Part shown: piece by piece, positions 1 through 42,351 of the stretch
How positions within the stretch are numbered: the first letter of the stretch is position 1
How the letters are laid out: the number at the start of each line of letters is the position of its first letter
Source: an uncultured bacterium
Lineage (GTDB): Bacteria > Patescibacteriota > Minisyncoccia > UBA6257 > 2-01-FULL-56-20
Reading direction: 5' to 3'
Assembly (NCBI GenBank): GCA_963725235.1
Contig: CAVRXN010000002.1
Coordinates: 250,902 to 314,901 of the forward strand
DNA length: 64,000 nucleotides
Program-made: the position numbers and the translations under genes
Notes under the pieces: model-generated
Seen by the model: only the letters and a program-made list of their open reading frames with translations
Database searches by the model: none
What the model was told of the DNA's origin: nothing

Positions 1-770
1 AAGCTATTCTTCCACTGAAAGGCAAGATTTTAAACGTCGAACGGGCGCGTTTAGATAAGATGCTCGCCAACGTTGAAATTCGTTCTTTAGTCGTGGCCAT
101 CGGCACCGCGATCGGCGAAGAATTTAATCTCGAAAAATTACGTTATCACAAGATCGTCATCATGACCGATGCTGACGTTGACGGCGCACACATCCGGACG
201 TTATTGTTGACGTTGTTCTATCGCTATTTCAAATCAGTTGTCGAAGGCGGTTATATTTACATCGCCCAGCCGCCGCTTTATAAGGTTCAGTTTGGGAAAA
301 CGATTCGCTATGCGTTTTCGGATGATGAGCGCGATCGGGTGATTGCGGAGATGCAGAAAGTCTCGCCGGCGAGCATAAAAGCTGCGGCAGCGAAAGCGGG
401 AGGTAAAGGCAAAAAGGAAAAAGTTTTAGTGACTGACGCCGCAAGTTTGGCCGACGCGGCTGCTGCGATCGAAGGCGAGGAAGCGATGGCGGTCGGTGCC
501 GATGGTGAACTTACCGAGGGCGCACCGGCAGCCGATGGCCGCCGCATGCCGAACATCCAGCGCTACAAAGGTTTGGGTGAAATGAACGCCGATCAACTTT
601 GGGAAACGACGATGAATCCGGAGAATCGATTGATGCTACAAGTGACAATCGATGACGCTGAAAAAGCTGACAAGCTGTTTGATGTCCTGATGGGCGAAGC
701 TGTCGAGCCGCGCAAGAATTTCATTCAGGCGAACGCGGCGAATGTGAAGAATTTGGATTTGGTAGCGTAA
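1..770 (+). CDS. gyrB: DNA gyrase subunit B, C-terminal part (5' end outside the window)
   Basis: Frame of ORF 60..770 stays open to the window edge. Motifs [26 protein letters not shown] and [17 protein letters not shown] roughly 70-aa Ala/Gly/Glu-rich insert precedes QRYKGLGEM. Confidence 0.9.
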
Positions 771-785
771 AAATAGCCAAAACAA

Positions 786-847
786 AAAAGGCCCATTCCT
801 GGGACTTTTTTGTATCCAACACGATACTGATCCGGCTTGCGACCCGT
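786..847 (-). ncRNA. Candidate ~60-nt small RNA, antisense-complementary to the long arm of the neighbouring tRNA-like RNA
   Basis: It is bounded by the predicted promoter at 854-881 (minus) and the hairpin/T-run at 790-811. Its first 18 nt (846->829) are the perfect complement of tRNA-like positions 959->942. Confidence 0.25.
790..811. terminator. Weak bidirectional hairpin flanked by an A-run and a T-run
   Basis: aaaaaaGGCCCAttccTGGGACtttttt lies directly after the gyrB stop. The core stem is short (CCCA/TGGG), with an A-run upstream and a T-run downstream. Confidence 0.4.
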
Positions 848-853
848 AAATAC

Positions 854-881
854 ATTTTAGCAGGCATAAAATAGTTGTCAA
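854..881 (-). promoter_or_regulatory. Sigma70-like promoter, TTGACA-16 nt-TAAAAT, on the minus strand
   Basis: Minus-strand TTGACA at 881-876 and TAAAAT at 859-854. The predicted start near 847 coincides with the start of the inverted-repeat copy. Confidence 0.4.
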
Positions 882-910
882 TCCATGTCGGAAATATGCC
901 TTTTCTGCGG

Positions 911-989
911 TGGAAGCGCGGGGAGTCAAACCCCGTGGATCCGGGTCGCAAGCCGGATCCAGCAATCGTGCCGCTCCCACCGCGCCCCC
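911..989 (-). ncRNA. Atypical tRNA-Ala-like RNA (resembles a tmRNA tRNA-like domain)
   Basis: Minus strand has a 7-bp acceptor GGGGGCG/CGCTTCC with G3:U70 and discriminator A. T-arm is CGGGG-TTTGACT-CCCCG. The central arm is GGATCCGG-CTTGCGAC-CCGGATCC, whose loop contains CT-TGC-GA. There is no convincing D-arm, and the length is 79 nt without CCA. Confidence 0.45.
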
Positions 990-1100
990 AGTATACCAAA
1001 AAGGTGATTAAAAAATTCTAAAGATGGCAGCGAGGGAAAAATGGGAATTTATTCACATTTTTACCGAGCGAACCATCTTGAGCGCGAAGCGCTCTAAGAT

Positions 1101-1129
1101 TTGCATTTCCTCGCCATCCGCGCTATAAT
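1101..1129 (+). promoter_or_regulatory. Sigma70-like promoter upstream of secE
   Basis: TTGCAT (1101-1106), 17-nt spacer, TATAAT (1124-1129), 20 nt before the secE ATG. Confidence 0.5.
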
Positions 1130-1149: not shown

Positions 1150-1338
1150 ATGTGGACCCGTATTAAACGTTTCTTTGAAGAGTCACGGCAAGAGATCCGG
1201 CACGTCAACTGGCCGACCCGCACGGAGGCAACCCGCCTGACGCTGATCGTTATCGTCATCGCACTCGGCATGGCGGTATTTTTGGGTTTCTTCGACTGGC
1301 TGTTCACGAACCTTATTAAAAGCTTTATTCTTCAATAA
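1150..1338 (+). CDS. secE: Preprotein translocase subunit SecE
   Basis: 62 aa with a single C-terminal TM helix. Motif VNWPTRTEA. Immediately upstream of nusG, the conserved gene order. Confidence 0.85.
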   Translation: MWTRIKRFFEESRQEIRHVNWPTRTEATRLTLIVIVIALGMAVFLGFFDWLFTNLIKSFILQ

Positions 1339-1380: not shown

Positions 1381-1953
1381 ATGGCACTCTCTTCGCGACC
1401 AGGCAGCACGCAAAACGAAAAACCGGGCATCCGGCAGTGGTACGCCGTCCAGACCTACTCGGGCTACGAGGAGGCGGTTGCGCGCTATCTGAAACAGCGC
1501 GTCGAGTCGCTGACGATGGGCGATAAGATTTTTAATATTTTGGTGCCGAAGGAAAAGACGATCCGCGTAAAAGGCGGTAAGCGGCAGACGGTCGAGGAGA
1601 AGATCTATCCGGGCTACGTGCTCGTCGAGATGGTACTGACCGAGGATTCTTGGTATGTCGTGCGCAATACGCCGCGCGTCACCGGCTTCGTCGGTCCCGA
1701 CAACACGACGCCGACCGCGCTTTCGAAAGAAGAAGTCGATTCGCTCCTTGCCCGCGCCGAACATGACGAGACCAAGACTACTATTGACTTTGAGGTGGGT
1801 GATCTGGTAAAAATAACCGACGGTCCGTTTAAGGAATACGACGGCAAGATCTCCGAGGTCAACCGGGAGAAGGGAAGCATCAAGGTCCTCGTCCCAATCT
1901 TCGGCCGTGAAACCGCCGTCGAACTGGATTCCTTGCAGGTTAAAAAAATCTAA
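1381..1953 (+). CDS. nusG: Transcription termination/antitermination factor NusG
   Basis: NGN domain WYAVQTYSGYE. KOW domain GDLVKITDGPFKEYDGKISEV. Confidence 0.95.
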   Translation: MALSSRPGSTQNEKPGIRQWYAVQTYSGYEEAVARYLKQRVESLTMGDKIFNILVPKEKTIRVKGGKRQTVEEKIYPGYVLVEMVLTEDSWYVVRNTPRVTGFVGPDNTTPTALSKEEVDSLLARAEHDETKTTIDFEVGDLVKITDGPFKEYDGKISEVNREKGSIKVLVPIFGRETAVELDSLQVKKI

Positions 1954-1957
1954 ACTG

Positions 1958-2176
1958 ATGGAAAATTTCGAAAGAAAATTTAACGTGAATCCTGAAGGTG
2001 AGGCTGAAGAGGAGAAGCTTCCTGAAAAGGACAGATTAGAAAATTTTAAGAAGGTTCATGAAACGAAAGGGAAGGTCATTTTTAGAAAAGTAGGGAATGA
2101 GACTCGTCGGTTCGTCGTTGATGAGAATGGTGAAGCTAAAATAGAAGAATTAGATAAAGATAAAAAAGAATCATAA
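1958..2176 (+). CDS. Small acidic hypothetical protein
   Basis: ATG at 1958 inside track ORF 1907..2176, just after the nusG stop. Glu/Lys-rich with no recognisable motif. Confidence 0.4.
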   Translation: MENFERKFNVNPEGEAEEEKLPEKDRLENFKKVHETKGKVIFRKVGNETRRFVVDENGEAKIEELDKDKKES

Positions 2177-2178
2177 CC

Positions 2179-2379
2179 ATGCAACAGTGTTTCTTTTGCT
2201 CACAGAATTTAAAAAACATCGACTATAAAGAGACCGAGCTTTTGCGTCGGTTCGTTTCGAGCCAGGCAAAAATCATCGATCCGCGCCACACGCATATCTG
2301 CGCGAAGCATCAGCGGAAACTTGCTGAAGCGATCAAGCGCGCGCGGTTCATGGCGTTGCTGCCGTACGTGAGGAAATAA
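2179..2379 (+). CDS. rpsR: 30S ribosomal protein S18
   Basis: Motifs IDYKETELLRRFVS, RHTHICAKHQRKLAEAIKRARFMALLPY. Confidence 0.9.
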   Translation: MQQCFFCSQNLKNIDYKETELLRRFVSSQAKIIDPRHTHICAKHQRKLAEAIKRARFMALLPYVRK

Positions 2380-2427
2380 CTTGATGCACTTTTGGGTGTA
2401 TGCTATCTTTTCGATAGGAGGGTCTCT

Positions 2428-3356: not shown

Positions 3357-4520
3357 TTATTTGTTCTTTCCCGCAGCCGCCCGCGAAGTTTTATTTCCCG
3401 ATACCGCGATCGGCTGAGGTGCCGGGGAAGGGCGATGTGATACTTCTTCTGGTCTCTGCGCCGTGACTTCACTGATCGGCAGATCTTCGCTCGATCTCGA
3501 GAAGACGAGCGAATGGATCTCATCGTAGTCGACATAGATGAAATCTCCCCGTCCGACTTGGTTGCTTGCTATCAGGTTTGAAAAAGGTGTAACGAGGTGA
3601 CGCTCGAGCGCGCGTTTGATATCCCGTGCGCCATATCTGATATCGGTACCTTCAGTTAGGAGAAAGTTCCGAGCCGAAGGGGTGAGTCGGAACAAAAATG
3701 GTTCAGCTATATTTCCGATTCTCCTCTGTATGTAATCGACTTCAATATCCAGGATTTGCTCAAGATCAATCGCTGTCAAAGGATGGAAGACGACAATCTT
3801 GTCGATACGGTTAATAAATTCGGGAGTGAATTTTTGCCGTGCCGCAGCATTGCCCACATTGCTGAGCTTTCGGTGCAGTTTGGTATCTGCGAGATCTGCA
3901 GGTTTACCCCCCGTGAATCCATATCCAGGATGGAGCATCTTACCCATTTCCACGGAGCCCAGATTGCTCGTCATGAAGATCATTGTCCGGGAAAAATCGA
4001 CCTTACGATTGTCGCCGAGTGTCAGTGTGGCTTTGTCGAGAATTCCCAGAAGGATATTCCAGAGGGCATCGCTTGCTTTTTCGATTTCATCGAAAAGAAC
4101 CAAGCTGAGCTTAATCGAATCGCCCCAGCAATGGTTCAGCACTTCTTGGCTCAAGAGCGGATGCGTCTCTCGATGCCCGAGATAGCCGGGAGGCGAACCG
4201 ATGAGCTTCGCAATTTCGTGGCTATGCTGGAATTCCGCGCAATCGATTTTTACAACCGCACGCGAGTTTTTGAACAGCGATTCCGCGGTTGCTTCGACGC
4301 TTCGCGTCTTTCCCGAACCCGTTGGCCCGAGAAAAAGAAAATTGGCAACAGGCCTTCCGAGAGCCGTCATGCCGGACAAAAATGATTGATACGCATCGGC
4401 AATCGCCCGAACTGCGGTATCTTGGCCAACGATCATCTTTCGGAGTTTCGTTAACAGTTCTTCACCTTCGGTGCCGCGTTGCGACGGGTCGAGCCGTTGC
4501 ATTTTGGGAGCCATAACCAA
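3357..4520 (-). CDS. Stand-alone AAA+ ATPase resembling the D2 module of ClpA/ClpB/ClpC
   Basis: Walker A GPTGSGKT, PPGYLGH, Walker B LVLFDEIEKA, FMTSNLG. No N-domain or D1 module within 387 aa. Confidence 0.8.
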   Translation of the reverse strand: MVMAPKMQRLDPSQRGTEGEELLTKLRKMIVGQDTAVRAIADAYQSFLSGMTALGRPVANFLFLGPTGSGKTRSVEATAESLFKNSRAVVKIDCAEFQHSHEIAKLIGSPPGYLGHRETHPLLSQEVLNHCWGDSIKLSLVLFDEIEKASDALWNILLGILDKATLTLGDNRKVDFSRTMIFMTSNLGSVEMGKMLHPGYGFTGGKPADLADTKLHRKLSNVGNAAARQKFTPEFINRIDKIVVFHPLTAIDLEQILDIEVDYIQRRIGNIAEPFLFRLTPSARNFLLTEGTDIRYGARDIKRALERHLVTPFSNLIASNQVGRGDFIYVDYDEIHSLVFSRSSEDLPISEVTAQRPEEVSHRPSPAPQPIAVSGNKTSRAAAGKNK

Positions 4521-33482: not shown

Positions 33483-34388
33483 ATGCCAACCGCGACAGGT
33501 TTAAAAAAAGCAAAAATAAATGCGCAAAAGAAGCCTGCAAAATCTTTAGAAAAATTTAATGGTGTTTTTGGTAATCTTAAGGAAAAGATTATGCAAAAAC
33601 CTTATTACGATAATCCAAGTTTTGTTCTCTACAATGGAGATTCTCTAAATATCTTGGCTCAGTTGCCGGAGAATTCAATAGATATGATATTTGCCGATCC
33701 GCCATATAACCTTTCAAATGGAGGATTTTCGGTTCATGCGGGCAAAATGGTCAGTGTAAATAAAGGAGATTGGGATAAAAGCAAAGGTTTCCAAGATGAT
33801 TATGATTTTCACTATAAATGGCTTGAAGCGGCTAGGCGTGTTTTAAAGCCGCATGGAACATTGTGGGTGAGTGGTACTTATCATTCGATTTATCAGTGCG
33901 GTCATGCCATTCAGGCGCTTGGATATCATATTTTAAATGATGTAGCTTGGTTCAAACCGAATGCTGCGCCGAATTTGAGCGCTCGATATTTTACGGCAAG
34001 TCATGAAACATTGATTTGGGCGCGTAAAGATAAAAAAGCAAAACATATCTTCAACTACAATTTGATGAAGAATGGAGATTGGAATGAAGATTTTCTCAAA
34101 AAACCGAATATGCAGATGAGATCGGTTTGGGCGATTGGAACTCCGAAGCCGGCAGAGAAAATTTTTGGCAAACATCCGACACAAAAACCGAGCGCGTTGC
34201 TCAACCGCATCGTTCTTGCGAGTACTAATAAAGGAGATATCATCCTCGATCCGTTCACTGGGAGCTCGACGACCGGTTTGGCGGCTCATCTTCAAGATAG
34301 AAAGTTTATTGGCATCGATACTGAAAAACAATTCTTAGATTTGTCAATAAAACGGTTCGAACAGTTATCCAGTGTTATGCTAGCTTGA
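33483..34388 (+). CDS. Type II DNA methyltransferase (N6-adenine or N4-cytosine, beta class)
   Basis: Motif IV FADPPYN precedes motif I ILDPFTGSSTTG, plus HPTQKP. The true start may be the internal ATG near 33591. Confidence 0.9.
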   Translation: MPTATGLKKAKINAQKKPAKSLEKFNGVFGNLKEKIMQKPYYDNPSFVLYNGDSLNILAQLPENSIDMIFADPPYNLSNGGFSVHAGKMVSVNKGDWDKSKGFQDDYDFHYKWLEAARRVLKPHGTLWVSGTYHSIYQCGHAIQALGYHILNDVAWFKPNAAPNLSARYFTASHETLIWARKDKKAKHIFNYNLMKNGDWNEDFLKKPNMQMRSVWAIGTPKPAEKIFGKHPTQKPSALLNRIVLASTNKGDIILDPFTGSSTTGLAAHLQDRKFIGIDTEKQFLDLSIKRFEQLSSVMLA

Positions 34389-34427
34389 TCTTCTGCCCGA
34401 TTGCTATATATTTGATCCGTACATACC

Positions 34428-34841
34428 ATGCCCCGAGATACTCGAACAGGCGGTGTTCTGGAAGCAATGATTTTGCCGTCTTTGGCTAGGGGCGGTTATC
34501 AAGCTCAATCACAGGTGCAAGTTGGCATCCGGTTGGGCGGTGGTGGCCGGCATTTTGTCGATGCAACGGCTCAGAAGGAAGAAAAGAAATATCTCGTTTC
34601 TTTAAAATGGCAACAAACCTCCGGAACCGCAGAGCAAAAAGTTCCGTTTGAAATTATTTGCTTAATTGATGCTGTCGAAACTCATGGATACGATAAGGCG
34701 TATTTAGTGCTCGGCGGAGAAGGATGGACCTTGAGAGATTTTTATGTTGGAGGTGGGCTGAAGAAATATCTGCCTCATGATAAAGTAGAGGTTATGACGT
34801 TGGAAGGATTTGTGGCGAAGGCGAATAAGGGATTGCTGTAA
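34428..34841 (+). CDS. Putative type II restriction endonuclease (PD-(D/E)XK-like)
   Basis: Lies 39 nt downstream of the MTase on the same strand. HFVD ... VSLKWQ fits a D...(S/E)xK nuclease core. 137 aa. Confidence 0.55.
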   Translation: MPRDTRTGGVLEAMILPSLARGGYQAQSQVQVGIRLGGGGRHFVDATAQKEEKKYLVSLKWQQTSGTAEQKVPFEIICLIDAVETHGYDKAYLVLGGEGWTLRDFYVGGGLKKYLPHDKVEVMTLEGFVAKANKGLL

Positions 34842-34978
34842 TTATTTGACTTTTTATCCTTTGACGAACAGAATGCCACAACACATTATAGAAAGGGCTT
34901 ATAAAACTCATCAACTGAGGCATTTTGTTGTAAATCGTAATAAGATAAACTAAAAGAATATTTTAGGAATTAAAATTT

Positions 34979-37084
34979 ATGATAGACGTAATTCGCGGAG
35001 CTAATAAGAAGGAGAATTCGACGGCACAATTGGTTGAATACCTCCAGAAATATTTTTCATCAGGCACAGAAGCAGTCGTTTATATAGGATATCCCATCTT
35101 AAGCACTGCTGTTGGGGGGATAACACTTGACGCCGTTCTTGTCGCAGAATCTTATGGAATAATCGTTTTTGATTTAGTTGAAGGTACGTCATGCGGTGAT
35201 AGGACCGAGCAGAGAGATCAGTTGTTTGCCAATATGAAATCAAAGCTGATCCAAAACCCTGAACTAATGGAAAAGCGGGACCTCGGAGTTAGTTTAGAAG
35301 TTCTTACTTTTGCTCCTCAGGTAAAAAGTTCAGATGACATATCTGAAGACTTTATTAATACCTTAGATCTTTTATCGAAACGCCTTGATAAAATTAAAAA
35401 TGAGAAAAATGAGAAATATATCAGAAGTCTTATTTCGGTGATACAGGTAGTCACTAAACTTAACAGTTCACGGAGGCGACGTGTAAACAAACCTGATTCA
35501 AGAGGTGCTAAACTGAAAGAGCTTGAGGAATCTATAGCTAATCTGGATAGTAGGCAAAATCGAGCGGTTATCGAAACGGTAGACGGGCCACAGCGTATCA
35601 GGGGATTGGCAGGATCGGGAAAAACAATTATCTTAGCCTTGAAGGCTGCATACTTGCATTCTAGATATCCAGAATGGGACATTGCCATCACTTTTAATAC
35701 TCGATCCCTGAAACAGCAATTTGTTGATTTGGTTACCAAATTTACCATCGAGCAAAAGCGGGAAGATCCCGATTGGACCAAATTGAAGATTCTTCAATCT
35801 TGGGGTAGCCATGCATCAACTGGAATATATTATGAATTCTGTATGGCAAATAACGTGGAACCTCTTGATTATAAAAACGCAAACGCAAAAGCGCGAAATT
35901 TGTCTCCCCTTGGGTACGCCTGCTTAACAGCTTTAAATCATTTGATTGCAAGGAAAATAGAACCTATTCAAAAATACGATGCAATTTTGATAGATGAAGC
36001 TCAAGATTTATCGCCTCTATTTCTAAAGCTTTGTTACAAATTCTTGAAACCACCAAAAAGAATTATTTGGGCATATGATGAGTTACAAAATCTCAGCTTG
36101 TTAAGGATGCAGTCGCCACGGGAATTATTTGGAATTGAACTAAGCAACGACCAAGAAGCTGCCCAGCAAGATATAATACTTGATAGATGTTACCGAAACT
36201 CTCGGCCAGTTCTTGTTACTGCTCATGGCTTAGGTTTTGGAACTGTGCGTGAAGAAGGTTTAGTTCAGATGTTTGACGAGCCGTCGCTTTGGAAGGAGAT
36301 TGGCTATGAAGTAGAAGGGAAACTAGCTCAAAAAAATAAAGTTTCTCTATATAGAACAAAAGTAACCAGCCCACCCTTTTTAGAGGTACACTCTTCTGAG
36401 GATGATTTAATACAATTTCATAAGTTTACAGGCAGAGAAGAAGAAAGTGATTGGATTGCAGAGCAAATAGAAAAGAATTTAAGAGAAGACGAATTAACAA
36501 CTCGTGACATCGTGGTGATTAATTTAAATTCTCTTACGACGAAAGAAGACACTGCCCTTTTGAGGGCAAAACTTCTCGAGCGTGATATAAATAGCCACAT
36601 TGCTGGATTAACAACGTCGCCTGATCAATTCTTCAAAGATGATTCCATTGCGGTGACAGGCATTTATCGTGCTAAGGGCAATGAAGCTGCAATGGTTTAC
36701 GTTATGAATAGCGAATATGCGTATGGAGGAATTGAGTTGATAAAAAAGAGAAATATGTTATTTTCCGCAATTACTCGTAGTAGGGCGTGGGTTCGTGTGG
36801 CCGGTTGTGGATTACAAATGGACGCACTAATTAAGGAGTTTGAAGGTATAAAAAATGCAGGGTTTAGGCTATCTTTCATATATCCAACTCCAGAAGAAAT
36901 GCAGCGAATGAGGTTGATTAATAGGGATCTTACTGAAAATGAAAAAAAGAGGAAACAAAAATCACTTTACGACATTGAACAGCTTACCGCAGCACTTGAA
37001 AGTGGAGATGTTCTCATTGAAGATATTGACCCACAGACAAAGCAAAAATTATCCTTATTACTGAAACAATCAAACGATGAGTAG
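34979..37084 (+). CDS. SF1 (UvrD-like) helicase with an N-terminal NERD-like domain, defence-type
   Basis: Walker A GLAGSGKT, Walker B ILIDEAQD, CYRNSRP, YRAKGNEA, ITRSRAW. The N-terminal ~110 aa are nuclease-related-domain-like. Confidence 0.8.
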   Translation: MIDVIRGANKKENSTAQLVEYLQKYFSSGTEAVVYIGYPILSTAVGGITLDAVLVAESYGIIVFDLVEGTSCGDRTEQRDQLFANMKSKLIQNPELMEKRDLGVSLEVLTFAPQVKSSDDISEDFINTLDLLSKRLDKIKNEKNEKYIRSLISVIQVVTKLNSSRRRRVNKPDSRGAKLKELEESIANLDSRQNRAVIETVDGPQRIRGLAGSGKTIILALKAAYLHSRYPEWDIAITFNTRSLKQQFVDLVTKFTIEQKREDPDWTKLKILQSWGSHASTGIYYEFCMANNVEPLDYKNANAKARNLSPLGYACLTALNHLIARKIEPIQKYDAILIDEAQDLSPLFLKLCYKFLKPPKRIIWAYDELQNLSLLRMQSPRELFGIELSNDQEAAQQDIILDRCYRNSRPVLVTAHGLGFGTVREEGLVQMFDEPSLWKEIGYEVEGKLAQKNKVSLYRTKVTSPPFLEVHSSEDDLIQFHKFTGREEESDWIAEQIEKNLREDELTTRDIVVINLNSLTTKEDTALLRAKLLERDINSHIAGLTTSPDQFFKDDSIAVTGIYRAKGNEAAMVYVMNSEYAYGGIELIKKRNMLFSAITRSRAWVRVAGCGLQMDALIKEFEGIKNAGFRLSFIYPTPEEMQRMRLINRDLTENEKKRKQKSLYDIEQLTAALESGDVLIEDIDPQTKQKLSLLLKQSNDE

Positions 37085-37712
37085 ATTAGCAAATGAAATA
37101 AGAAGTGAGATATCATCCCTGACTCAGCTTTTGACTCAGGAAAGTCTATCTATCGATTCTCGTATTGCGCAACTCCAGATGCGAAATGGTATCTGCGAGG
37201 TGGGATGGTCAAAAAATGGACCCAATATTGCTTTAGCATTAAAAGATATCGGCTATTCGGAGTGTCATAAATATTTTTTTAGCAATCAGCAATATAATTT
37301 AATCTTACCTGACGGCGCGTTACTTCAGTTTCTTTACAGATTCGAAAAAGAGAAATTAATAGAGCATAGGGTTTCTTATATGCCCGCCCCTACAGATTTT
37401 GATGACAATGAGGAATTCGATATTGCTTCGAACGCAGCTCTACCGATTAGAATCGATTTTTCTCCAGATCAAGCTGTGCTCATAAATCACTCTGCGGCTC
37501 ATGTTCATTTGGGACACAATGTAGACTGGCGAATTCCGACTTCGGCTCCCATAACGCCTAAAGATTTTACACTTTTTATATTAAGAAGTTTTTATGCAGA
37601 TAAGCTTTCGCCAAAAATTATAACTGCCCTGTGTCAATCGCGTTCAGCCTTCCCCGAATCCATTGAAGAGATCGAAAAAGAAGCCATATATATTAAAGTA
37701 CCGAGCATTTGA
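37077..37712 (+). CDS. Hypothetical protein translationally coupled to the helicase (possible DUF2290-type partner)
   Basis: The start overlaps the helicase stop by 8 nt (ATGAGTAG). 211 aa. The family assignment rests on the two-gene architecture only. Confidence 0.55.
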   Translation: MSRLANEIRSEISSLTQLLTQESLSIDSRIAQLQMRNGICEVGWSKNGPNIALALKDIGYSECHKYFFSNQQYNLILPDGALLQFLYRFEKEKLIEHRVSYMPAPTDFDDNEEFDIASNAALPIRIDFSPDQAVLINHSAAHVHLGHNVDWRIPTSAPITPKDFTLFILRSFYADKLSPKIITALCQSRSAFPESIEEIEKEAIYIKVPSI

Positions 37713-37811
37713 AAAATCTTTAATGTATGTAGGTTTACAATGAAATAATCTTTTATGAAGAGATTATTCGAAATATTACGGGTTATTAAAACGATTCCGC
37801 ACTCATTTGCT

Positions 37812-37921
37812 ATCTTGTTTCCTCCACCCCCGCACGCCGTGAGCACGGTCGGACGTGATGGGTAAGGTGTTGTGGGCGATGTCGCAACTGCCGGGTCACG
37901 GGGGATTGGTGAGAGGAAGAT
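37812..37921 (+). repeat. GC-rich long-hairpin element, copy C
   Basis: ATCTTgtttCCTCCACCCCCG ... CGGGGGATTGGTGAGAGGaAGAT. A C-rich 5' arm pairs with a G-rich 3' arm, set in AT-rich surroundings. Confidence 0.6.
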
Positions 37922-38008
37922 TTAGATAAATAAAAGGGGGAGTAACCTGGATGGCACTCCCCGGCGGTGACATATTCTTTTTTTGAACAGGATTCACTGC
38001 CATTGAGG

Positions 38009-38173
38009 TTATTTGCGTTTCTCGTCTCGCGCTTTAAACTTCACCTCAACTTTTTCCTTAACCATTTCATGCGCCTTGAAAGAAACAGGGCCGTTCTTGG
38101 TTTCAAACGAAACCCGTATGGGCTCTTTCTTTGGCTTTTCGGCGTAGAAATCAACTAAATGTTTTTTAGCCAT
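38009..38173 (-). CDS. Possible 54-aa lysine-rich protein downstream of lexA
   Basis: Translation MAKKHLVDFYAEKPKKEPIRVSFETKNGPVSFKAHEMV... No clear SD. The opposite-strand track ORF 37967..38158 looks non-coding. Confidence 0.25.
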   Translation of the reverse strand: MAKKHLVDFYAEKPKKEPIRVSFETKNGPVSFKAHEMVKEKVEVKFKARDEKRK

Positions 38174-38236
38174 GGAAATTTTATTAATTTTGGGTAGCTA
38201 CCGTCGACCTTCGCGGTAGATTAATTTCTAGGATAA

Positions 38237-38845
38237 TCATTGGGAGATATTTTTAATAACATCGATGACCACTCCTTGAATTGCGAATCCAGTATTCCCG
38301 CTTCTTACGATAATCGGCTCCATTTTTTTATTTGCTGGTTGCAGGCGAATATGATCTTTTTCTTGGAAGAATGTTTTTAGTGTTGTTTCATAGTTATCGA
38401 TGAGAGCAACAACTTTTTCGCCATTATGCGCGATAGACTGATCTCTAACTAAGATGATGTCGCCATCATTGATATGTTCATCAATCATGCTTTCTCCAAC
38501 AACTTTTAATGCATAGATTCCTTCTAGGGACTGAGGTAATCTACTTCTTGGGACGGCGATAATTTCCTGTCCTTCTGTTATCGCTTCAATCGGCTGGCCC
38601 GCTGCAACTCTGCCAAGTAAAGGTATCTGAATTAAGTGATCTGATTTGATATGGAGAGAGCGTGCTTTATTTATCCCCGTGCCGAGATAGCCTTTCTCGC
38701 GCAATTTTTCTATATGCTCTTGGACGGTTCCTAAAGAGGTGACACCTAAATGATTGGCGATTTCCCTGAGAGATGGAGCTACGCCTCGTTTAGTGATCTG
38801 TATTCCAATAAAATCGAGGATTTCTTTTTGACGTTTAGTTAACAT
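38237..38845 (-). CDS. lexA: LexA-like S24 autopeptidase repressor
   Basis: Winged HTH PSLREIANHLGVTSLGTVQEHIEKL, Ala-Gly cleavage site VAAGQP, Ser nucleophile GESM, Lys in TTLKTF. Confidence 0.85.
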   Translation of the reverse strand: MLTKRQKEILDFIGIQITKRGVAPSLREIANHLGVTSLGTVQEHIEKLREKGYLGTGINKARSLHIKSDHLIQIPLLGRVAAGQPIEAITEGQEIIAVPRSRLPQSLEGIYALKVVGESMIDEHINDGDIILVRDQSIAHNGEKVVALIDNYETTLKTFFQEKDHIRLQPANKKMEPIIVRSGNTGFAIQGVVIDVIKNISQ

Positions 38846-38878
38846 GATGTTTTAATATGGTTAATATTGACCTATGGC

Positions 38879-38907
38879 TTGACTTGCGGGTCATTTACGG
38901 GTACTAT
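38879..38907 (+). promoter_or_regulatory. Sigma70-like promoter of the cyclase operon
   Basis: TTGACT (38879-38884), 17-nt spacer, TACTAT (38902-38907). Confidence 0.45.
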
Positions 38908-38910
38908 CTC

Positions 38911-38939
38911 ATTGTAATTCAGGAATGCTGTTTTGGCAA
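38911..38939 (-). promoter_or_regulatory. Sigma70-like promoter of lexA, overlapping the cyclase promoter
   Basis: Minus-strand TTGCCA (38939-38934), 17-nt spacer, TACAAT (38916-38911). The two -10 boxes are 3 bp apart on opposite strands. Confidence 0.45.
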
Positions 38940-38978
38940 GGAATGATAATTGCTTTATAAAATTAATCAAAAACTAAC

Positions 38979-39800
38979 ATGAATGATTTTGAAGAAAAGC
39001 TTTTCGTCGATGGCGTTTTAGAAATAGTCGATGAAGCCGATAAGAGATACGCGGCAGGTGTATCCATCGAAAAAAAAGATTTTATACCCCTGACGGATTC
39101 TATGCCGCTGGAAACAAATACTTGGTGGAGGGTGGATGACGTGGTGTGCTTGTACATCGACATGAAAGATTCAACCAAGCTATCCGTCCAGCATAAAGAT
39201 AAAGTTGCGGCAAAGATATATCAATATTTTACGGGAACGGCAGTAAAAATTCTGGATCACTTCGGGGCTTCTTATATCGATGTTCGCGGTGACGGAGCGT
39301 TTGGTTTGTTTGACAAAAATAAGATTTATCATGCATTTTCTGCTGCTATAACTTTTAAAACTATCGTTATGAAATATCTCAGCGAGGCCACAAAGGATGA
39401 CGATGTAAAAATTACTTGCCATCTCGGTATGGATATAAAAACTGTTTTGGTTAAGCGAATTGGTATGCGAAAGGTGGCTGGAAAATCAACAAAACAAAAT
39501 GAAGTATGGGCAGGGAAGCCGGTTAATATGGCTGCCAAGCTGGCATCAAAAGGAGATGCTAATCAATTGTTAATTTCCGAGCGGGTGTATTCAATTTTCG
39601 AGAAAGATGGGTCGGATCTAATTTTGTGGACTTGTGGATGTGGCAACATCGAAAAACCAGGCGAAAAAGTTCCGATTTGGAAGAAGATGGAATTAGAATC
39701 ACCGATTTTTGATTTTGCAGAAGCTTATTCCATGGAAAATTGTTGGTGCGAAAGTCATGGTAGCGAGTTTTGTTTTGGCATAATGGATTTGGATAAATAA
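38979..39800 (+). CDS. Class III nucleotidyl cyclase (Pycsar PycC-like), paralogue 1
   Basis: Metal Asp motifs LYIDMKDSTKL and VRGDGAFGLF, GKPVNMAAKLAS (Asn present, Lys where Arg is usual), LLISERVY. Confidence 0.8.
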   Translation: MNDFEEKLFVDGVLEIVDEADKRYAAGVSIEKKDFIPLTDSMPLETNTWWRVDDVVCLYIDMKDSTKLSVQHKDKVAAKIYQYFTGTAVKILDHFGASYIDVRGDGAFGLFDKNKIYHAFSAAITFKTIVMKYLSEATKDDDVKITCHLGMDIKTVLVKRIGMRKVAGKSTKQNEVWAGKPVNMAAKLASKGDANQLLISERVYSIFEKDGSDLILWTCGCGNIEKPGEKVPIWKKMELESPIFDFAEAYSMENCWCESHGSEFCFGIMDLDK

Positions 39801-39807
39801 TACTTAC

Positions 39808-40311
39808 ATGGGAAATACTCACAAAGAAATTACTATTGGGCGCGCAGAAAGCAATCTACAGCGGCAACTAGATTGGATCGGTCGATATGACGCCAGAATT
39901 TCGTTTGTAACGGGCATATGCATAGGTATGATTGGTTTATTGGTCGGTATAGTTCCTGCACCCGATAAGTGGACAACGGTTCTATGTATATCATTTTTTG
40001 CCACTATTGGCTTACTGATCGTGAGTCTTGTCTATGTTTACCTAGGTCAATATCCAAAAACGGATTCACCGAATCAATCCCTTCTTTTCTTTGGCACGAT
40101 TGCCAAGTTAAAACATGATGAATTCAATAAAAATTTTAAAGCAGCTTCAGACGATGATTATTTAGAGGATTTGCTTTCGCAGTGTCATATTAATGCTCAA
40201 ATCTTAAGTAAGAAATTTTATGTTTTTAAAAGAGCCTTGATATTAATGCTAATTGCGGTTGTTCCGTGGGCGATAGCTATTTATATAGTTAAATTGATAC
40301 CAGTGTCATAA
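39808..40311 (+). CDS. Three-TM small membrane protein (candidate PycTM-type effector)
   Basis: 167 aa. TM helices ISFVTGICIGMIGLLVGIV, WTTVLCISFFATIGLLIVSLVYVYL and ALILMLIAVVPWAIAIYIV. There is no room for a CAP-type cNMP-binding domain. Lies 7 nt after cyclase 1 and 4 nt before cyclase 2. Confidence 0.6.
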   Translation: MGNTHKEITIGRAESNLQRQLDWIGRYDARISFVTGICIGMIGLLVGIVPAPDKWTTVLCISFFATIGLLIVSLVYVYLGQYPKTDSPNQSLLFFGTIAKLKHDEFNKNFKAASDDDYLEDLLSQCHINAQILSKKFYVFKRALILMLIAVVPWAIAIYIVKLIPVS

Positions 40312-40315
40312 TCAA

Positions 40316-41023
40316 ATGGATTGGCCCGAAATATTAACAAATGAAGCCGAGGAAATCTTGACGACTAAATGGGATGAACGCGCTGGAAGTGTTGTCCCAG
40401 AATCCGATAGCGTTACCCTTAAGGATGGAGCGGTTAAAATTGATGCTACATTTTTATATGCTGATCTTGCTGGATCGTCGAAATTAGCAAGATTTTGTCC
40501 ATGGCAGACTACTGCAAAAATAATCCGTGCATATCTTTCGTGTTCGGTTCGGTTAATCAAAGCTTATGGAGGAGAGGTTCGTAGTTTTGACGGCGACCGT
40601 GTGATGGGTATTTTTATGGGAGATTTGAAAAATACTTATGCAGTAAGATGTGCACGGGAAATTGATTGGGTGGTAGAAAAGATAATCAATCCGAAAGCCA
40701 AGGAAAAATTTGAATCAGTAAGGAAGAACGGAATTGCAATTCGACATTGTGTTGGAATAGATACAGGAGAAACAGTCGCTGTACGTGCGGGGGTTCGCAA
40801 CAATAACGATCTTATCTGGATTGGGCGAGCGCCTAGCTTAGCGGCAAAACTTTCCGACATTCGCGCCTTTCCATATACTATCTATATAAGCAAAGATATA
40901 TATGGAGTTTTAGGAGCTACGGAAAAAGTTGTGAATAATACGCTGATTTGGGAGGAGGAAAATTTTATCTTCGCTGGTGATAATTTATCTGTTTACAGAA
41001 CTTCGTATTATCGAACTCCTTAA
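40316..41023 (+). CDS. Class III nucleotidyl cyclase, paralogue 2 (divergent catalytic set)
   Basis: LYADLAGSSKL, FDGDRVMGIF, GRAPSLAAKLSD (Ser at the usual Asn position), IYISKDIY. Confidence 0.75.
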   Translation: MDWPEILTNEAEEILTTKWDERAGSVVPESDSVTLKDGAVKIDATFLYADLAGSSKLARFCPWQTTAKIIRAYLSCSVRLIKAYGGEVRSFDGDRVMGIFMGDLKNTYAVRCAREIDWVVEKIINPKAKEKFESVRKNGIAIRHCVGIDTGETVAVRAGVRNNNDLIWIGRAPSLAAKLSDIRAFPYTIYISKDIYGVLGATEKVVNNTLIWEEENFIFAGDNLSVYRTSYYRTP

Positions 41024-41029
41024 TTTTAT

Positions 41030-41168
41030 CTTACCCACCCCTCCCAGCCCCGCACCCGCACCCACCTCCAATCTGCCCACGGCGTTGTGGTAGCGCACGG
41101 TCATCGTCTGCCGCACCCGCCGGGCCCGCGCGTGCGTGGCGGGAGGGGGATTGGGGGAGGGAATTAAG
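41030..41168 (+). repeat. GC-rich long-hairpin element, copy A (contains a G4 motif)
   Basis: CTTACCCACCCCTCCCAGCCCC ... GGGAGGGGGATTGGGGGAGGGaatTAAG. A 55-nt core (41108-41162) matches copy B at 53/55 positions. Confidence 0.7.
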
Positions 41169-41185
41169 AGATGTTGACACGATAT

Positions 41186-41213
41186 AAAAAGGGCCTCGAC
41201 TGGAGTCGGGCCC
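41186..41213 (-). terminator. Rho-independent terminator of the minus-strand two-gene operon
   Basis: Minus strand reads GGGCCCGACTccAGTCGaGGCCC followed by TTTTT. Confidence 0.55.
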
Positions 41214-41246
41214 GTGAAGTATGAACAGAGTGAAAGAACGGGTTGG

Positions 41247-41495
41247 TTAGGCGATTTTCTTTTCTTCATGCAGCCATCTGGAGTGTAATTTTACACCTTC
41301 GACGCTGCAAGAGTCGTGGATGACATAGCGGATGCTCCCCTCATTGAGATGATCTTCGATCCCATAGAGCAGCATCGACAGCATCTTCACGGGATCTTCA
41401 TCGACCGCTCGTTGGTTGCCGGTAAAAGCCACGATGCGGCGAAGGCGATCAATAATGTCCTTTGGCAGTTCATTCGGGCGTTGCGGTTCATTCAT
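41247..41495 (-). CDS. Hypothetical 82-aa protein
   Basis: Overlaps the upstream 287-aa gene by 8 nt, implying translational coupling. No motif recognised. Confidence 0.5.
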   Translation of the reverse strand: MNEPQRPNELPKDIIDRLRRIVAFTGNQRAVDEDPVKMLSMLLYGIEDHLNEGSIRYVIHDSCSVEGVKLHSRWLHEEKKIA

Positions 41496-42351
41496 CTGAT
41501 TGCTCCTTTGCCTGTGCTGCGTCCATTATAGCACGCTCCAGGGATTCCGAGCGCGGCTTCATGATGTTGATATTGAAATGGAAGATACTGCTGACCCAAA
41601 TTTCATCTTCCAATTTCTTGCCTTCTTCGGCTTCGGCTACTTGCACGACGCGTTTCCAAAGTTCCCGGACGAGGAAACCAAAGATAAAGAGTCCGCAGTC
41701 GTCGATCCATTTGGTGATTGAGCCCGCTAGCCGTTTGTAATTTTCTTCGGCATAGCGTCGTTTATCGGCTTTCCATTCTTGATGACGCCCGAGGAAGCGA
41801 CCCATTTCGCCGTCGCTCCAATAGGCGTCATAGTCGGTATGCCCGTAAATACTCATTACCCAATACAAAATGGCACGATACACGTCGAGATGTCCTGCTT
41901 CGATCGCCACCTTTTCTTCGTCGTGATTGAAAACGAAGATGAGCCGGATGATCTGCGTACGCTCCTCATCGATCCGTTGTTTGCCGTCTTGTCCTTTTTT
42001 GGCAAGAAATACGCCATCGACTTCATGCATCGACCATCCATGAAAAGGGGATGTATACATCTTCATCCGCGCTTCTGCTTGCTCAAGTGTTGGCCGAACT
42101 TTGGACGATTCGGACGATGTGTAACGATCCGGATCGAACCAATGAGGATAGACAGACAGTTCGGTCTCAAGGAGGAGTTGCGCAAGTTTGATGAGCCTCA
42201 TTCTTACGCGCTCCTCATCAAGGCCATTGCTTAGAGCTTCAAATATCGCGCCTTGATAAGCAACTTTCTTCGGAAAATAAATTTCCGTGAAAATACTTCG
42301 CTTGCCTGGCTCGAATTCGTACGAGATAGGCGTTGTCCCATCATTTGTCAT
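41488..42351 (-). CDS. Hypothetical 287-aa protein
   Basis: AAAGGA before the ATG. The promoter at 42402-42430 is upstream. No motif recognised. Confidence 0.6.
   Translation of the reverse strand: MTNDGTTPISYEFEPGKRSIFTEIYFPKKVAYQGAIFEALSNGLDEERVRMRLIKLAQLLLETELSVYPHWFDPDRYTSSESSKVRPTLEQAEARMKMYTSPFHGWSMHEVDGVFLAKKGQDGKQRIDEERTQIIRLIFVFNHDEEKVAIEAGHLDVYRAILYWVMSIYGHTDYDAYWSDGEMGRFLGRHQEWKADKRRYAEENYKRLAGSITKWIDDCGLFIFGFLVRELWKRVVQVAEAEEGKKLEDEIWVSSIFHFNINIMKPRSESLERAIMDAAQAKEQSDE

Follow-up and report, generated by a model that had tools for sequence, protein, structure and literature searches.

The window analyzed here, a stretch of 64,000 nucleotides (nt) from contig CAVRXN010000002.1 of an uncultured bacterium of the Patescibacteriota, carries gyrB, secE, and nusG near its start (Table 1), and the 379-nt spacer between gyrB and secE houses two candidate RNA genes. 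One would encode a tRNA-Ala-like RNA, and the other would encode a short partner RNA complementary to the central arm of the first. An earlier note on this DNA had proposed an atypical tRNA-Ala-like RNA with a promoter-driven complementary neighbor, and conservation and covariation in related genomes support this core reading. Because the two-gene pairing recurs and co-evolves in relatives, the locus has the look of an RNA-RNA control module that is not yet described, and not of a tRNA that has broken down.

The comparison set consisted of 160 related loci, 80 from genomes and 80 from metagenomes (L001-L160), and further loci were numbered L161-L170. The NusG relatives were all metagenome-assembled genomes, labeled as Paceibacterota, Parcubacteria, Liptonbacteria, or Minisyncoccia. 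The order gyrB-secE-nusG was kept in nearly all 160 loci, whereas the gyrB-secE spacer ranged from 31 nt to approximately 2.5 kb (571 nt in L001/L085 and approximately 2.5 kb in L125). Such variable length between conserved housekeeping genes marks the spacer as a rearrangement hot spot.

Table 1 Features of the gyrB-secE-nusG region of the window and of two related loci. Positions refer to the window unless a locus is named.
Feature	Position	Strand	Description	Evidence
gyrB	60-770	+		Pfam
Partner (antisense) RNA, predicted	780-847	-	approximately 65 nt	promoter, repeat, fold
Terminator-like hairpin, bidirectional	782-813		A6-stem-loop-stem-U6	fold and inverted-repeat scan
Second block, CACGAT	820-825		inverted copy of 965-970 in the connector	read from sequence
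18-nt block	829-846		perfect inverted copy of 942-959	inverted-repeat scan
Partner promoter, predicted	854-881	-	TTGACA-16-TAAAAT with TG; 11/12 matches, near-consensus sigma-70	promoter scan
tRNA-Ala-like RNA, predicted	907-983	-		MFE fold, sub-threshold Rfam alignments, covariance model of relatives
A73 and trailer CCGC	911 and 910-907	-		
Acceptor 3' strand	918-912	-	CGCUUCC; U70 = 914	
T-arm	935-919	-	CGGGG/UUUGACU/CCCCG; stem 935-931/923-919, T-loop 930-924	
Single nucleotide A936	936	-	between central stem and T-stem	
Central hairpin	960-937	-	GGAUCCGG/CUUGCGAC/CCGGAUCC; stem 960-953/944-937	
8-nt loop	952-945	-	CUUGCGAC	MFE fold
Connector in place of D-arm	971-961	-	G+CACGAUUGCU; 10-11 nt	
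Acceptor 5' strand	978-972	-	GGGAGCG; G3 = 976	
Leader	983-979	-	GCGGU; pairs with ACCGC 911-907	
tRNA-like promoter, predicted (extended -10)	990-1003	-	CTTTTTGG-TATACT; TG 998-997, -10 at 995-990	
Composite hairpin	1018-1082		10-bp outer and 15-bp inner stem	inverted-repeat scan
Small GC hairpin	1083-1097			inverted-repeat scan
secE promoter, predicted	1100-1129		TTTGCA-18-TATAAT	promoter scan
secE	1150-1338	+		Pfam
nusG	1381-1953	+		Pfam
tmRNA of L064	L064 4046-4373	-	328 nt, downstream of nusG; tag ANNSYASAPALAYA*	
secE leader hairpin of L004	L004 3760-3776		also in spacers of L007, L008, L014, L018, L023, and L038	terminator-like in scan

Structure of the tRNA-Ala-like element

The minus strand from 992 to 905 folds with a minimum free energy (MFE) of -50.4 kcal/mol (z = -4.09), which none of 200 shuffled sequences equaled. 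As the earlier note had described, the fold contains a T-arm and no D-arm; its central arm is a stem of 8 to 9 base pairs (bp) closed by the 8-nt loop CUUGCGAC. The pair G976:U914 and A911 correspond to G3:U70 and A73, the identity set of alanyl-tRNA synthetase (AlaRS), by which the element might be recognized. These features had been seen before and were confirmed, but the start at 989 that was given with them was not: the acceptor most likely begins at 978. The alternative acceptor GGGGGCG from 989 pairs too, whereas the register from 978 is backed by the MFE fold, by the Rfam transfer-messenger RNA (tmRNA) alignment, and by comparison with relatives. The flanks close this stem, the leader GCGGU and ACCGC extending it to a continuous 12 bp. 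The element has no D-arm guanines (G18 G19), its T-loop, UUUGACU, carries U56 and not U54-U55-C56, and its central loop is not a 7-nt anticodon loop with U33, a purine at position 37, and an alanine anticodon.

ARAGORN called neither a tRNA nor a tmRNA at the window element, and Rfam reported nothing at the gathering score in the window spacer; its tRNA model was not reported for the element. Likewise, no Rfam family accounted for either RNA in the window spacer or in the spacer of the relative L004. The best-scoring sub-threshold alignment was with mascRNA (24.6 bits, gathering score 42.5), and the best clan match was tmRNA (15.9 bits, gathering score 47, E = 1.9e-4). Both alignments use the same acceptor and T-arm as the MFE fold.

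The tmRNA match bears on the likeness to the tRNA-like domain (TLD) of tmRNA that the earlier note had drawn, and on the idea that the element is a minimal tmRNA, either a TLD alone or the acceptor piece of a split tmRNA with the partner as its coding piece. The window features (G3:U70, A73, T-arm, and absence of a D-stem) fit this likeness, but it appears superficial. In addition to the low score and the negative ARAGORN result, relatives of the element have a regular tRNA-type D-arm. No tag frame was found: the partner RNAs have no conserved reading frame ending in a stop, the relatives being inconsistent, and the partner RNA of the window has no stop in any frame before its terminator. Moreover, the relative L064 encodes a standard one-piece tmRNA (Table 1), and thus the element is not ssrA. 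We consider a minimal or split tmRNA scarcely credible.

Upstream of the element, we predict an extended -10 promoter with the start approximately 6 to 8 nt past the -10 hexamer, at the first base of the leader helix (approximately 983). A simple promoter scan missed it because it has no -35 hexamer. The promoter is homologous in sequence and position to CTTTTTGtTAatCTG, which precedes the element of every relative, and to the promoter in L168 (see below); the upstream block reads CTTTAGAATTTTTTAATCACCTTTTTGGTATACTG in the window and TTTTAGATAGTTTTAAT...CTTTTTGTTAATCTG in the relatives.

A family of tRNA-Ala-like genes in related genomes

Neither blastn nor nhmmer gave a match in the 80 genome loci, whether the query was the window element or the entire spacer; with plain sequence searches empty, the homology of the element surfaced only through structure and position. 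The tRNA-like gene was first read, on the secE strand, in the larger spacers of relatives, and six of these genes, with the window left out, served as the basis of a covariance model. This model recovered 10 members in the 80 genome loci and 13 in the 80 metagenome loci, and a homologous gene for a tRNA-Ala-like RNA is present in approximately 25 related Paceibacteria loci. All model members except L059 lie in the gyrB-secE spacer, and the family spans NusG identities of 71 to 87% to the window. The model found the window element at full length with 27.8 bits (E approximately 0.008 in 0.66 Mb; E-values of a home-made covariance model are rough), a score that is weak by itself because an ordinary tRNA scores about the same. 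The homology of the window element rests also on its position and on the common promoter sequence.

The family alignment shows which parts of the tRNA-like fold are kept. G1-C72, G2-C71, G3:U70, and A73 are invariant, and positions 4 to 7 covary; the third pair is G:U in all 16 aligned sequences, whereas neighboring pairs switch from CG to UA. The leader-trailer helix is 5 to 7 bp long, takes in A73, and shows compensatory changes (e.g., CCUGUGG/CCACAGG in L006). Direct stacking of this helix on the acceptor was seen in the window and in L121/L125, and no such helix was present in the genuine tRNAs of the same loci. An extended -10 motif, TGnTAnnnT, is conserved 7 nt before the leader, ahead of each tRNA-like gene. 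Most members have a normal T-arm (UUCGA) and a D-arm.

The central loop, by contrast, is variable. It follows the formula Y32-U33-NNN-C37-A38 with weak flanking pairs in most members, measures 7 to 13 nt in the relatives, and most often carries C37. Its central triplet differs among close relatives (UAA, UAG, GAG, CGA, UAC, UGG, and CGC), and UGC is still found in the loop of the window, L030, L059, L117, and L121. Because this triplet differs, ARAGORN calls members Leu, Ser, Val, Pro, Ala, or nothing. With the Rfam tRNA model, L004 scored 23.6 bits, below the threshold of 29, and only L018 passed (38.6 bits). Judging from these alignments, the family members are not ordinary decoders and are under purifying selection that includes the alanine identity pair; the family probably derives from tRNA-Ala (UGC).

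Contigs of the same species were sought through the exact NusG protein, which gave L168, L169, and L170, the last being too short; the exact SecE protein had no match on record. L168, with an identical NusG protein and approximately 87% DNA identity, carries an element at 128-211 on the minus strand, in the orientation of the window and with the same promoter. Neither the window nor L168 has retained the D-arm. The loop of L168, AUCGUCAC, differs from that of the window, and its T-loop is the canonical UUCAACU.

A decaying tRNA-Ala pseudogene or integration-site remnant, next to a fortuitous partial inverted duplication and without function, would account for the missing D-arm, the U56, and the 8-nt loop of the window copy, for its rejection by ARAGORN and Rfam, and for the absence of the cassette from some very close relatives. 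Neither the persistence of the family over this range of NusG identities, with an invariant G3:U70 and compensatory changes in four helices, nor a conserved dedicated promoter and a covarying partner is expected of pseudogenes. The covariation already largely refutes this explanation, which we regard as very improbable.

A viral origin was also considered. One pattern scan of IMG/VR found no family member, and a phage-borne element was set aside; the scan returned phage tRNAs of the ordinary kind and, in addition, a single tRNA-like sequence that is high in GC and unrelated. Among these, a phage tRNA-Lys(UUU) (L161, 6946-7027, plus strand) carries a 5-bp leader-trailer extension, UCGGU/ACCGA, that resembles the one in the window. 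The high-GC viral contig L165 has a tRNA-like sequence with G3:U70 (3890-3957, plus strand), with a CCGC-UGCG-GCGG tetraloop hairpin in place of the anticodon arm.

The partner RNA of the window

The 18-nt inverted copy that had been noticed between 829-846 and 942-959 is 100% complementary, and CACGAT could be read directly at both of its sites. The copied segment comprises the 5' stem strand of the central arm, its complete loop, and 3 nt of its 3' strand; by our own arithmetic, such an 18-mer is expected by chance in 500 nt about 2e-6 times. The promoter lies directly before the copy, as had been claimed, with exactly 7 nt between the -10 hexamer and the first complementary base, and the predicted partner RNA would therefore begin with its seed. 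From its 5' end, it would consist of CGGGUCGCAAGCCGGAUC (846-829), AUCGUG (825-820), a small hairpin, and a terminator, in agreement with the short RNA of the earlier note. The terminator-like hairpin, with an A-tract and a U-tract, is predicted to end gyrB on the plus strand as well as the partner RNA on the minus strand; a simple terminator scan missed it because of one stem mismatch.

The first 27 nt of the partner would pair with 970-942 through 18 bp, an internal loop, and 6 bp. Relative to the two RNAs folded apart, the predicted heterodimer gains 14.2 kcal/mol in stability, whereas shuffled seeds gave a gain of 0. Of all 30-mers from the initial 5 kb of the window, 819-848 (minus strand) is by a wide margin the best duplex partner of the arm, with -52.6 kcal/mol against a background mean of -15.6 ± 5.2 kcal/mol (z = -7.1).

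Pairing and covariation across species

In the window and its relatives, the partner occurs in two gene orders. The type 1 order, found in the window and in L059, is the tRNA-like gene, approximately 26 to 38 nt, TTGACA-16-TAAAAT, 7 nt, the complementary block, and the terminator, with a block that spans the loop of the arm together with its 5' strand. L059 is distant (71% NusG identity) and has its element at a different genomic site; the hexamers, the spacer, and the 7-nt distance to the block are identical to those of the window. The type 2 order, found in most relatives, runs from the gyrB stop through a promoter (TTGACT-16/17-TAAGAT), a block A', a small hairpin, and a block B' to a strong terminator, followed by the tRNA-like promoter, the tRNA-like gene, a GC hairpin, and the secE promoter. 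B' is 10 to 13 nt long and ends one base ahead of the terminator stem; its exact complement runs from loop position 34 to the end of the 3' strand in the anticodon-like stem. The complement of A' is the 5' strand as far as position 32, and U33 alone is left uncovered.

Apart from L024/L131 and L168, all members with a long enough flank have an exact complement of loop and stem, 9 to 18 nt long. The check in relatives that had been suggested thus showed that the element is conserved and that nearly all relatives carrying it have a covarying partner. Comparing cognate with noncognate pairs by RNAduplex matrices of whole molecules gave no information, as the energies of long sequences are large throughout, and the matrices were replaced by the longest exact complement and by anchored covariation tests. 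The longest complementary run averaged 11.4 nt for cognate pairs (minimum 10) and 5.4 nt for noncognate pairs. An alignment of 14 distinct pairs of B' and loop, anchored independently of pairing, had 91% of cells paired, compared with 33 to 43% when the partner was slid; positions 4 to 12 were paired in 14/14 sequences. A contiguous run of 9 to 10 pairs was thereby retained in every one of the 14, and nine positions showed compensatory changes. Double changes occurred at 11 of the 13 pairs, and the observed score was reached in 0/500 shuffles. A' was 86% paired with double changes at seven of nine pairs, and the type 2 partner terminator was 95% paired and also covaried. The local anticodon-like stem was 67% paired, below the long-range helix in that alignment, a value that is partly due to register shifts. 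Compensatory changes thus preserve extended complementarity between species. A single target shared by two gene orders, which lie at different loci and have unrelated partner sequences, argues for selection on the RNA-RNA interaction and against a duplication accident.

Covariation proves the pairing without telling intramolecular from intermolecular contacts, and it would also fit a device acting in cis, in which the complementary segment belongs to the transcript of the tRNA-like RNA itself and serves as a folding, processing, or stability switch, much like the a1/b1 copies around the phage P1 C4 RNA. The window has no terminator between the tRNA-like gene and the partner, and the MFE structure of a 209-nt read-through RNA is a long-range duplex of -91.1 kcal/mol (z = -6.6). 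The near-consensus promoter of the window and L059, however, would start transcription 7 nt before the complementary block, and elsewhere among the relatives, the partner and the tRNA-like gene have a strong terminator that covaries and a conserved promoter between them; promoter and terminator signals predict a transcription unit for each of the two RNAs. A reversal of gene order between lineages would also be poorly tolerated by a cis-folding device. We therefore regard the cis device as unlikely.

At the DNA level, the repeats could instead be sites of an inversion switch or ends of a mobile element, and the covariation could reflect site homogenization. The perfect 18-nt repeats of the window bracket a segment of approximately 95 bp with the partner promoter, the cassette of the window and L168 is oriented opposite to that of the other relatives, and the spacer is a hot spot of rearrangement. 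In approximately 16 relatives, however, the complement consists of two blocks in permuted order and not of a collinear inverted repeat, and the partner promoter lies outside the repeats. Blocks of 10 to 13 nt are generally too short for homology-driven gene conversion, the repeat sequence is not conserved as the core of a recombinase site would be, and the ten open reading frames (ORFs) scanned in the first 8 kb contain no recombinase domain. Flipping the window segment would, moreover, not rebuild the tRNA-like gene. An invertible promoter switch was accordingly rejected, mainly on the permuted order of A' and B', and a DNA-level signal of any such kind seems quite improbable.

Proposed mechanism

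In the reading we favor, with confidence somewhat above even, a dedicated antisense RNA would act in trans to control a small RNA derived from tRNA-Ala. The first gene would be transcribed from its own modest extended -10 promoter into an RNA whose leader pairs with its trailer and which retains the alanine identity set and the T-arm. Normal decoding features would have been lost, as suggested by the 8-nt loop and missing D-arm of the window and by the pyrimidine at position 37 and freely drifting "anticodon" of the relatives. The second gene would yield a short RNA from a stronger promoter, with an intrinsic terminator and a seed complementary to the anticodon-like arm; the seed of the window would be the first 18 nt and a further 6 nt. 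The partner RNA would nucleate on the exposed loop and then invade the stem, so that the arm becomes an intermolecular duplex of approximately 20 bp. This duplex could mask or inactivate the tRNA-like RNA, for example, as a substrate of RNase III, and the result would be dedicated antisense control with a species-specific, co-evolving specificity. Alanylation of the tRNA-like RNA would first need removal of the trailer and addition of CCA, since conservation at the 3' end extends no further than A73-C74.

Several observations weigh against this account, in addition to the weak covariance score of the window element. The promoters and terminators of both predicted RNAs are consensus matches only, and the lack of a terminator between the two genes of the window makes a single transcript of approximately 205 nt, pairing in cis, equally possible there. 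Because A' lies 5' of B' in most relatives, both blocks cannot form one continuous duplex, and A' may merely be part of a stem of the partner RNA itself and make no second contact. No complementary partner was found in L168 within the 126 nt before the contig end or in L024/L131 within the available sequence. L169, with an identical NusG protein, is without the cassette, and L081 (98% NusG identity) has no element in the 195 nt available upstream of secE; the module is therefore dispensable and patchy in its distribution.

Patchy distribution, a hot-spot site, and asymmetric promoter strengths invite, but do not prove, a toxin-antitoxin-like reading. We tentatively consider an RNA-only, type VIII-like toxin-antitoxin or defense cassette or, as a related reading, an antisense-gated donor of alanine outside the ribosome, although either is doubtful. 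The toxin would be a nondecoding tRNA-Ala mimic, perhaps charged by AlaRS, titrating it, or entering the translation machinery, and the antitoxin would be the strongly expressed, co-evolving antisense RNA, which would unzip the anticodon arm of the mimic. As an alanine donor, the RNA could serve cell-wall or lipid aminoacylation, with its availability gated by its own antisense RNA.

Other identities were rejected on specific grounds. T-box-like antitermination of secE-nusG fails in the window and L059, where nothing lies downstream of the terminator of the partner, and no alternative antiterminator structure was seen. Mimicry of the Y RNA/YrlA type would have the opposite topology, the RNA described here ending at the acceptor and not at the anticodon side, and gave no Rfam match. 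A protein-dependent module was dismissed on the observation that no constant protein gene accompanies the cassette, the spacer inserts being heterogeneous and without Pfam matches. These inserts are unrelated to each other and include a Cys-rich HNH-like ORF (L025/L054), ABC-transporter fragments (L030), orphan ORFs without a Pfam match (L168/L169), and long GC-rich inverted repeats (L001).

Other features of the locus

Between the tRNA-like promoter and the secE promoter, the hairpins at 1018-1097 gave a weak Rfam match to "lactis-plasmid" (24.1 bits, gathering score 70). They may be an insulator or a terminator, and whether they are part of the two-gene module is uncertain. In relatives but not in the window, a conserved hairpin, ACCGCGAGUAUAGCGGU, followed by a U-rich run lies in the 5' leader of secE, just before the ribosome-binding site (Table 1); it may be an attenuator of secE-nusG. 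Downstream of nusG in the window (1953-2380), a small Glu/Lys-rich orphan ORF is followed by rpsR (S18), and the usual rplK-rplA pair was not found there. The ORF has 89 amino acids from a GTG at 1907 or approximately 72 from an internal ATG and has no Pfam match. Farther along, the GC content of 34000-42000 is 0.39 to 0.45, compared with 0.50 to 0.55 elsewhere in the window, and this region may be a horizontally acquired island.

Implications

If both RNAs are expressed, this would be, to our knowledge, the first bacterial tRNA-shaped RNA with alanine identity that has a dedicated co-evolving antisense RNA on its anticodon arm; literature searches found no description of such a module. Expression would also add an uncurated RNA family, without an Rfam match, to the poorly characterized noncoding repertoire of the candidate phyla radiation (CPR), and it would provide a natural case of specificity "barcoding" between two trans-encoded RNAs. 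The module raises the question of what use minimal genomes have for a nondecoding RNA that AlaRS could recognize, be it regulation, nonribosomal alanine transfer, or an RNA toxin. If true, the toxin or alanine-donor reading would represent a previously unknown bacterial use of tRNA mimicry. For genome annotation, the ARAGORN labels tRNA-Leu, -Ser, -Val, -Pro, and -Ala could pass for mistranslating tRNAs or codon reassignment.

Comparison with known systems

A close structural likeness is to bacterial tRNA-Ala (UGC), with which the family shares G1-C72, G2-C71, G3:U70, A73, and the T-arm and, in the relatives, a D-arm with GG and the Y32-U33 start of the loop. Unlike tRNA-Ala, the family has its own promoter, a leader-trailer helix that would sequester A73 and the 3' tail, and a loop of 8 to 13 nt, or of 7 nt with C37, whose "anticodon" drifts; the element also falls below tRNA detection thresholds and has a dedicated complementary neighbor. 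A reduced tRNA-like fold is also known from mascRNA/MALAT1, for which the first hairpin of the Rfam model has 3 bp where the D-arm would lie, and a leader-trailer interaction has been described in its processing (PMC8457004). mascRNA, however, is eukaryotic, is cut by RNase P/Z from a long noncoding RNA, and has no homology to the window element.

The TLD of tmRNA, including the TLD-only form of jakobid mitochondria, likewise combines an alanine-identity acceptor and a T-arm with a helix that replaces the decoding arm, and the window copy resembles it further in having no D-stem. The element differs in that it has no mRNA-like domain or pseudoknots and scores far below the Rfam threshold; its relatives keep the tRNA D-stem, and a normal tmRNA occurs in the clade (L064).

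Type I and type VIII toxin-antitoxin systems (hok/sok, SdsR/RyeA, and CreT/CreA) are similar as compact, patchy two-gene RNA modules in a variable hot spot, in which a strong antisense promoter faces a weaker target promoter and specificity co-evolves rapidly. The module has no toxin ORF, and toxicity of the tRNA-like RNA is pure conjecture; no RNA toxin is known to be a tRNA mimic.

C4 of phages P1 and P7 (immI) is a small structured RNA with tRNA-like ends, reported as a substrate of RNase P. It acts through two short blocks (a'/b') on a neighboring transcript, and these blocks covary between elements and set specificity. The module shares with C4 the structured RNA with tRNA-like ends, the two short covarying complementary blocks, and the neighboring transcript. 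The module has no sequence similarity to C4, and neither the window spacer nor that of L004 gave a match to the Rfam C4 model at E ≤ 10. In contrast to C4, the element is a near-complete tRNA mimic with AlaRS identity elements and has no evident protein-coding target, and the host of the module is a CPR chromosome, not a prophage.

The antisense systems CopA/CopT, RNA I/RNA II, and C4 work loop-first. The proposed module would resemble RNA I/RNA II of ColE1 and CopA/CopT of R1 in loop-first recognition of a cloverleaf-like or hairpin RNA, stem invasion, specificity set by the loop, and a strong antisense promoter; it has no evident replicon function. In the ColE1 and R1 pairs, complementarity is automatic because the two RNAs are cis-encoded on opposite strands of the same DNA, whereas the partner in the module is a separate locus that must co-evolve with its target.

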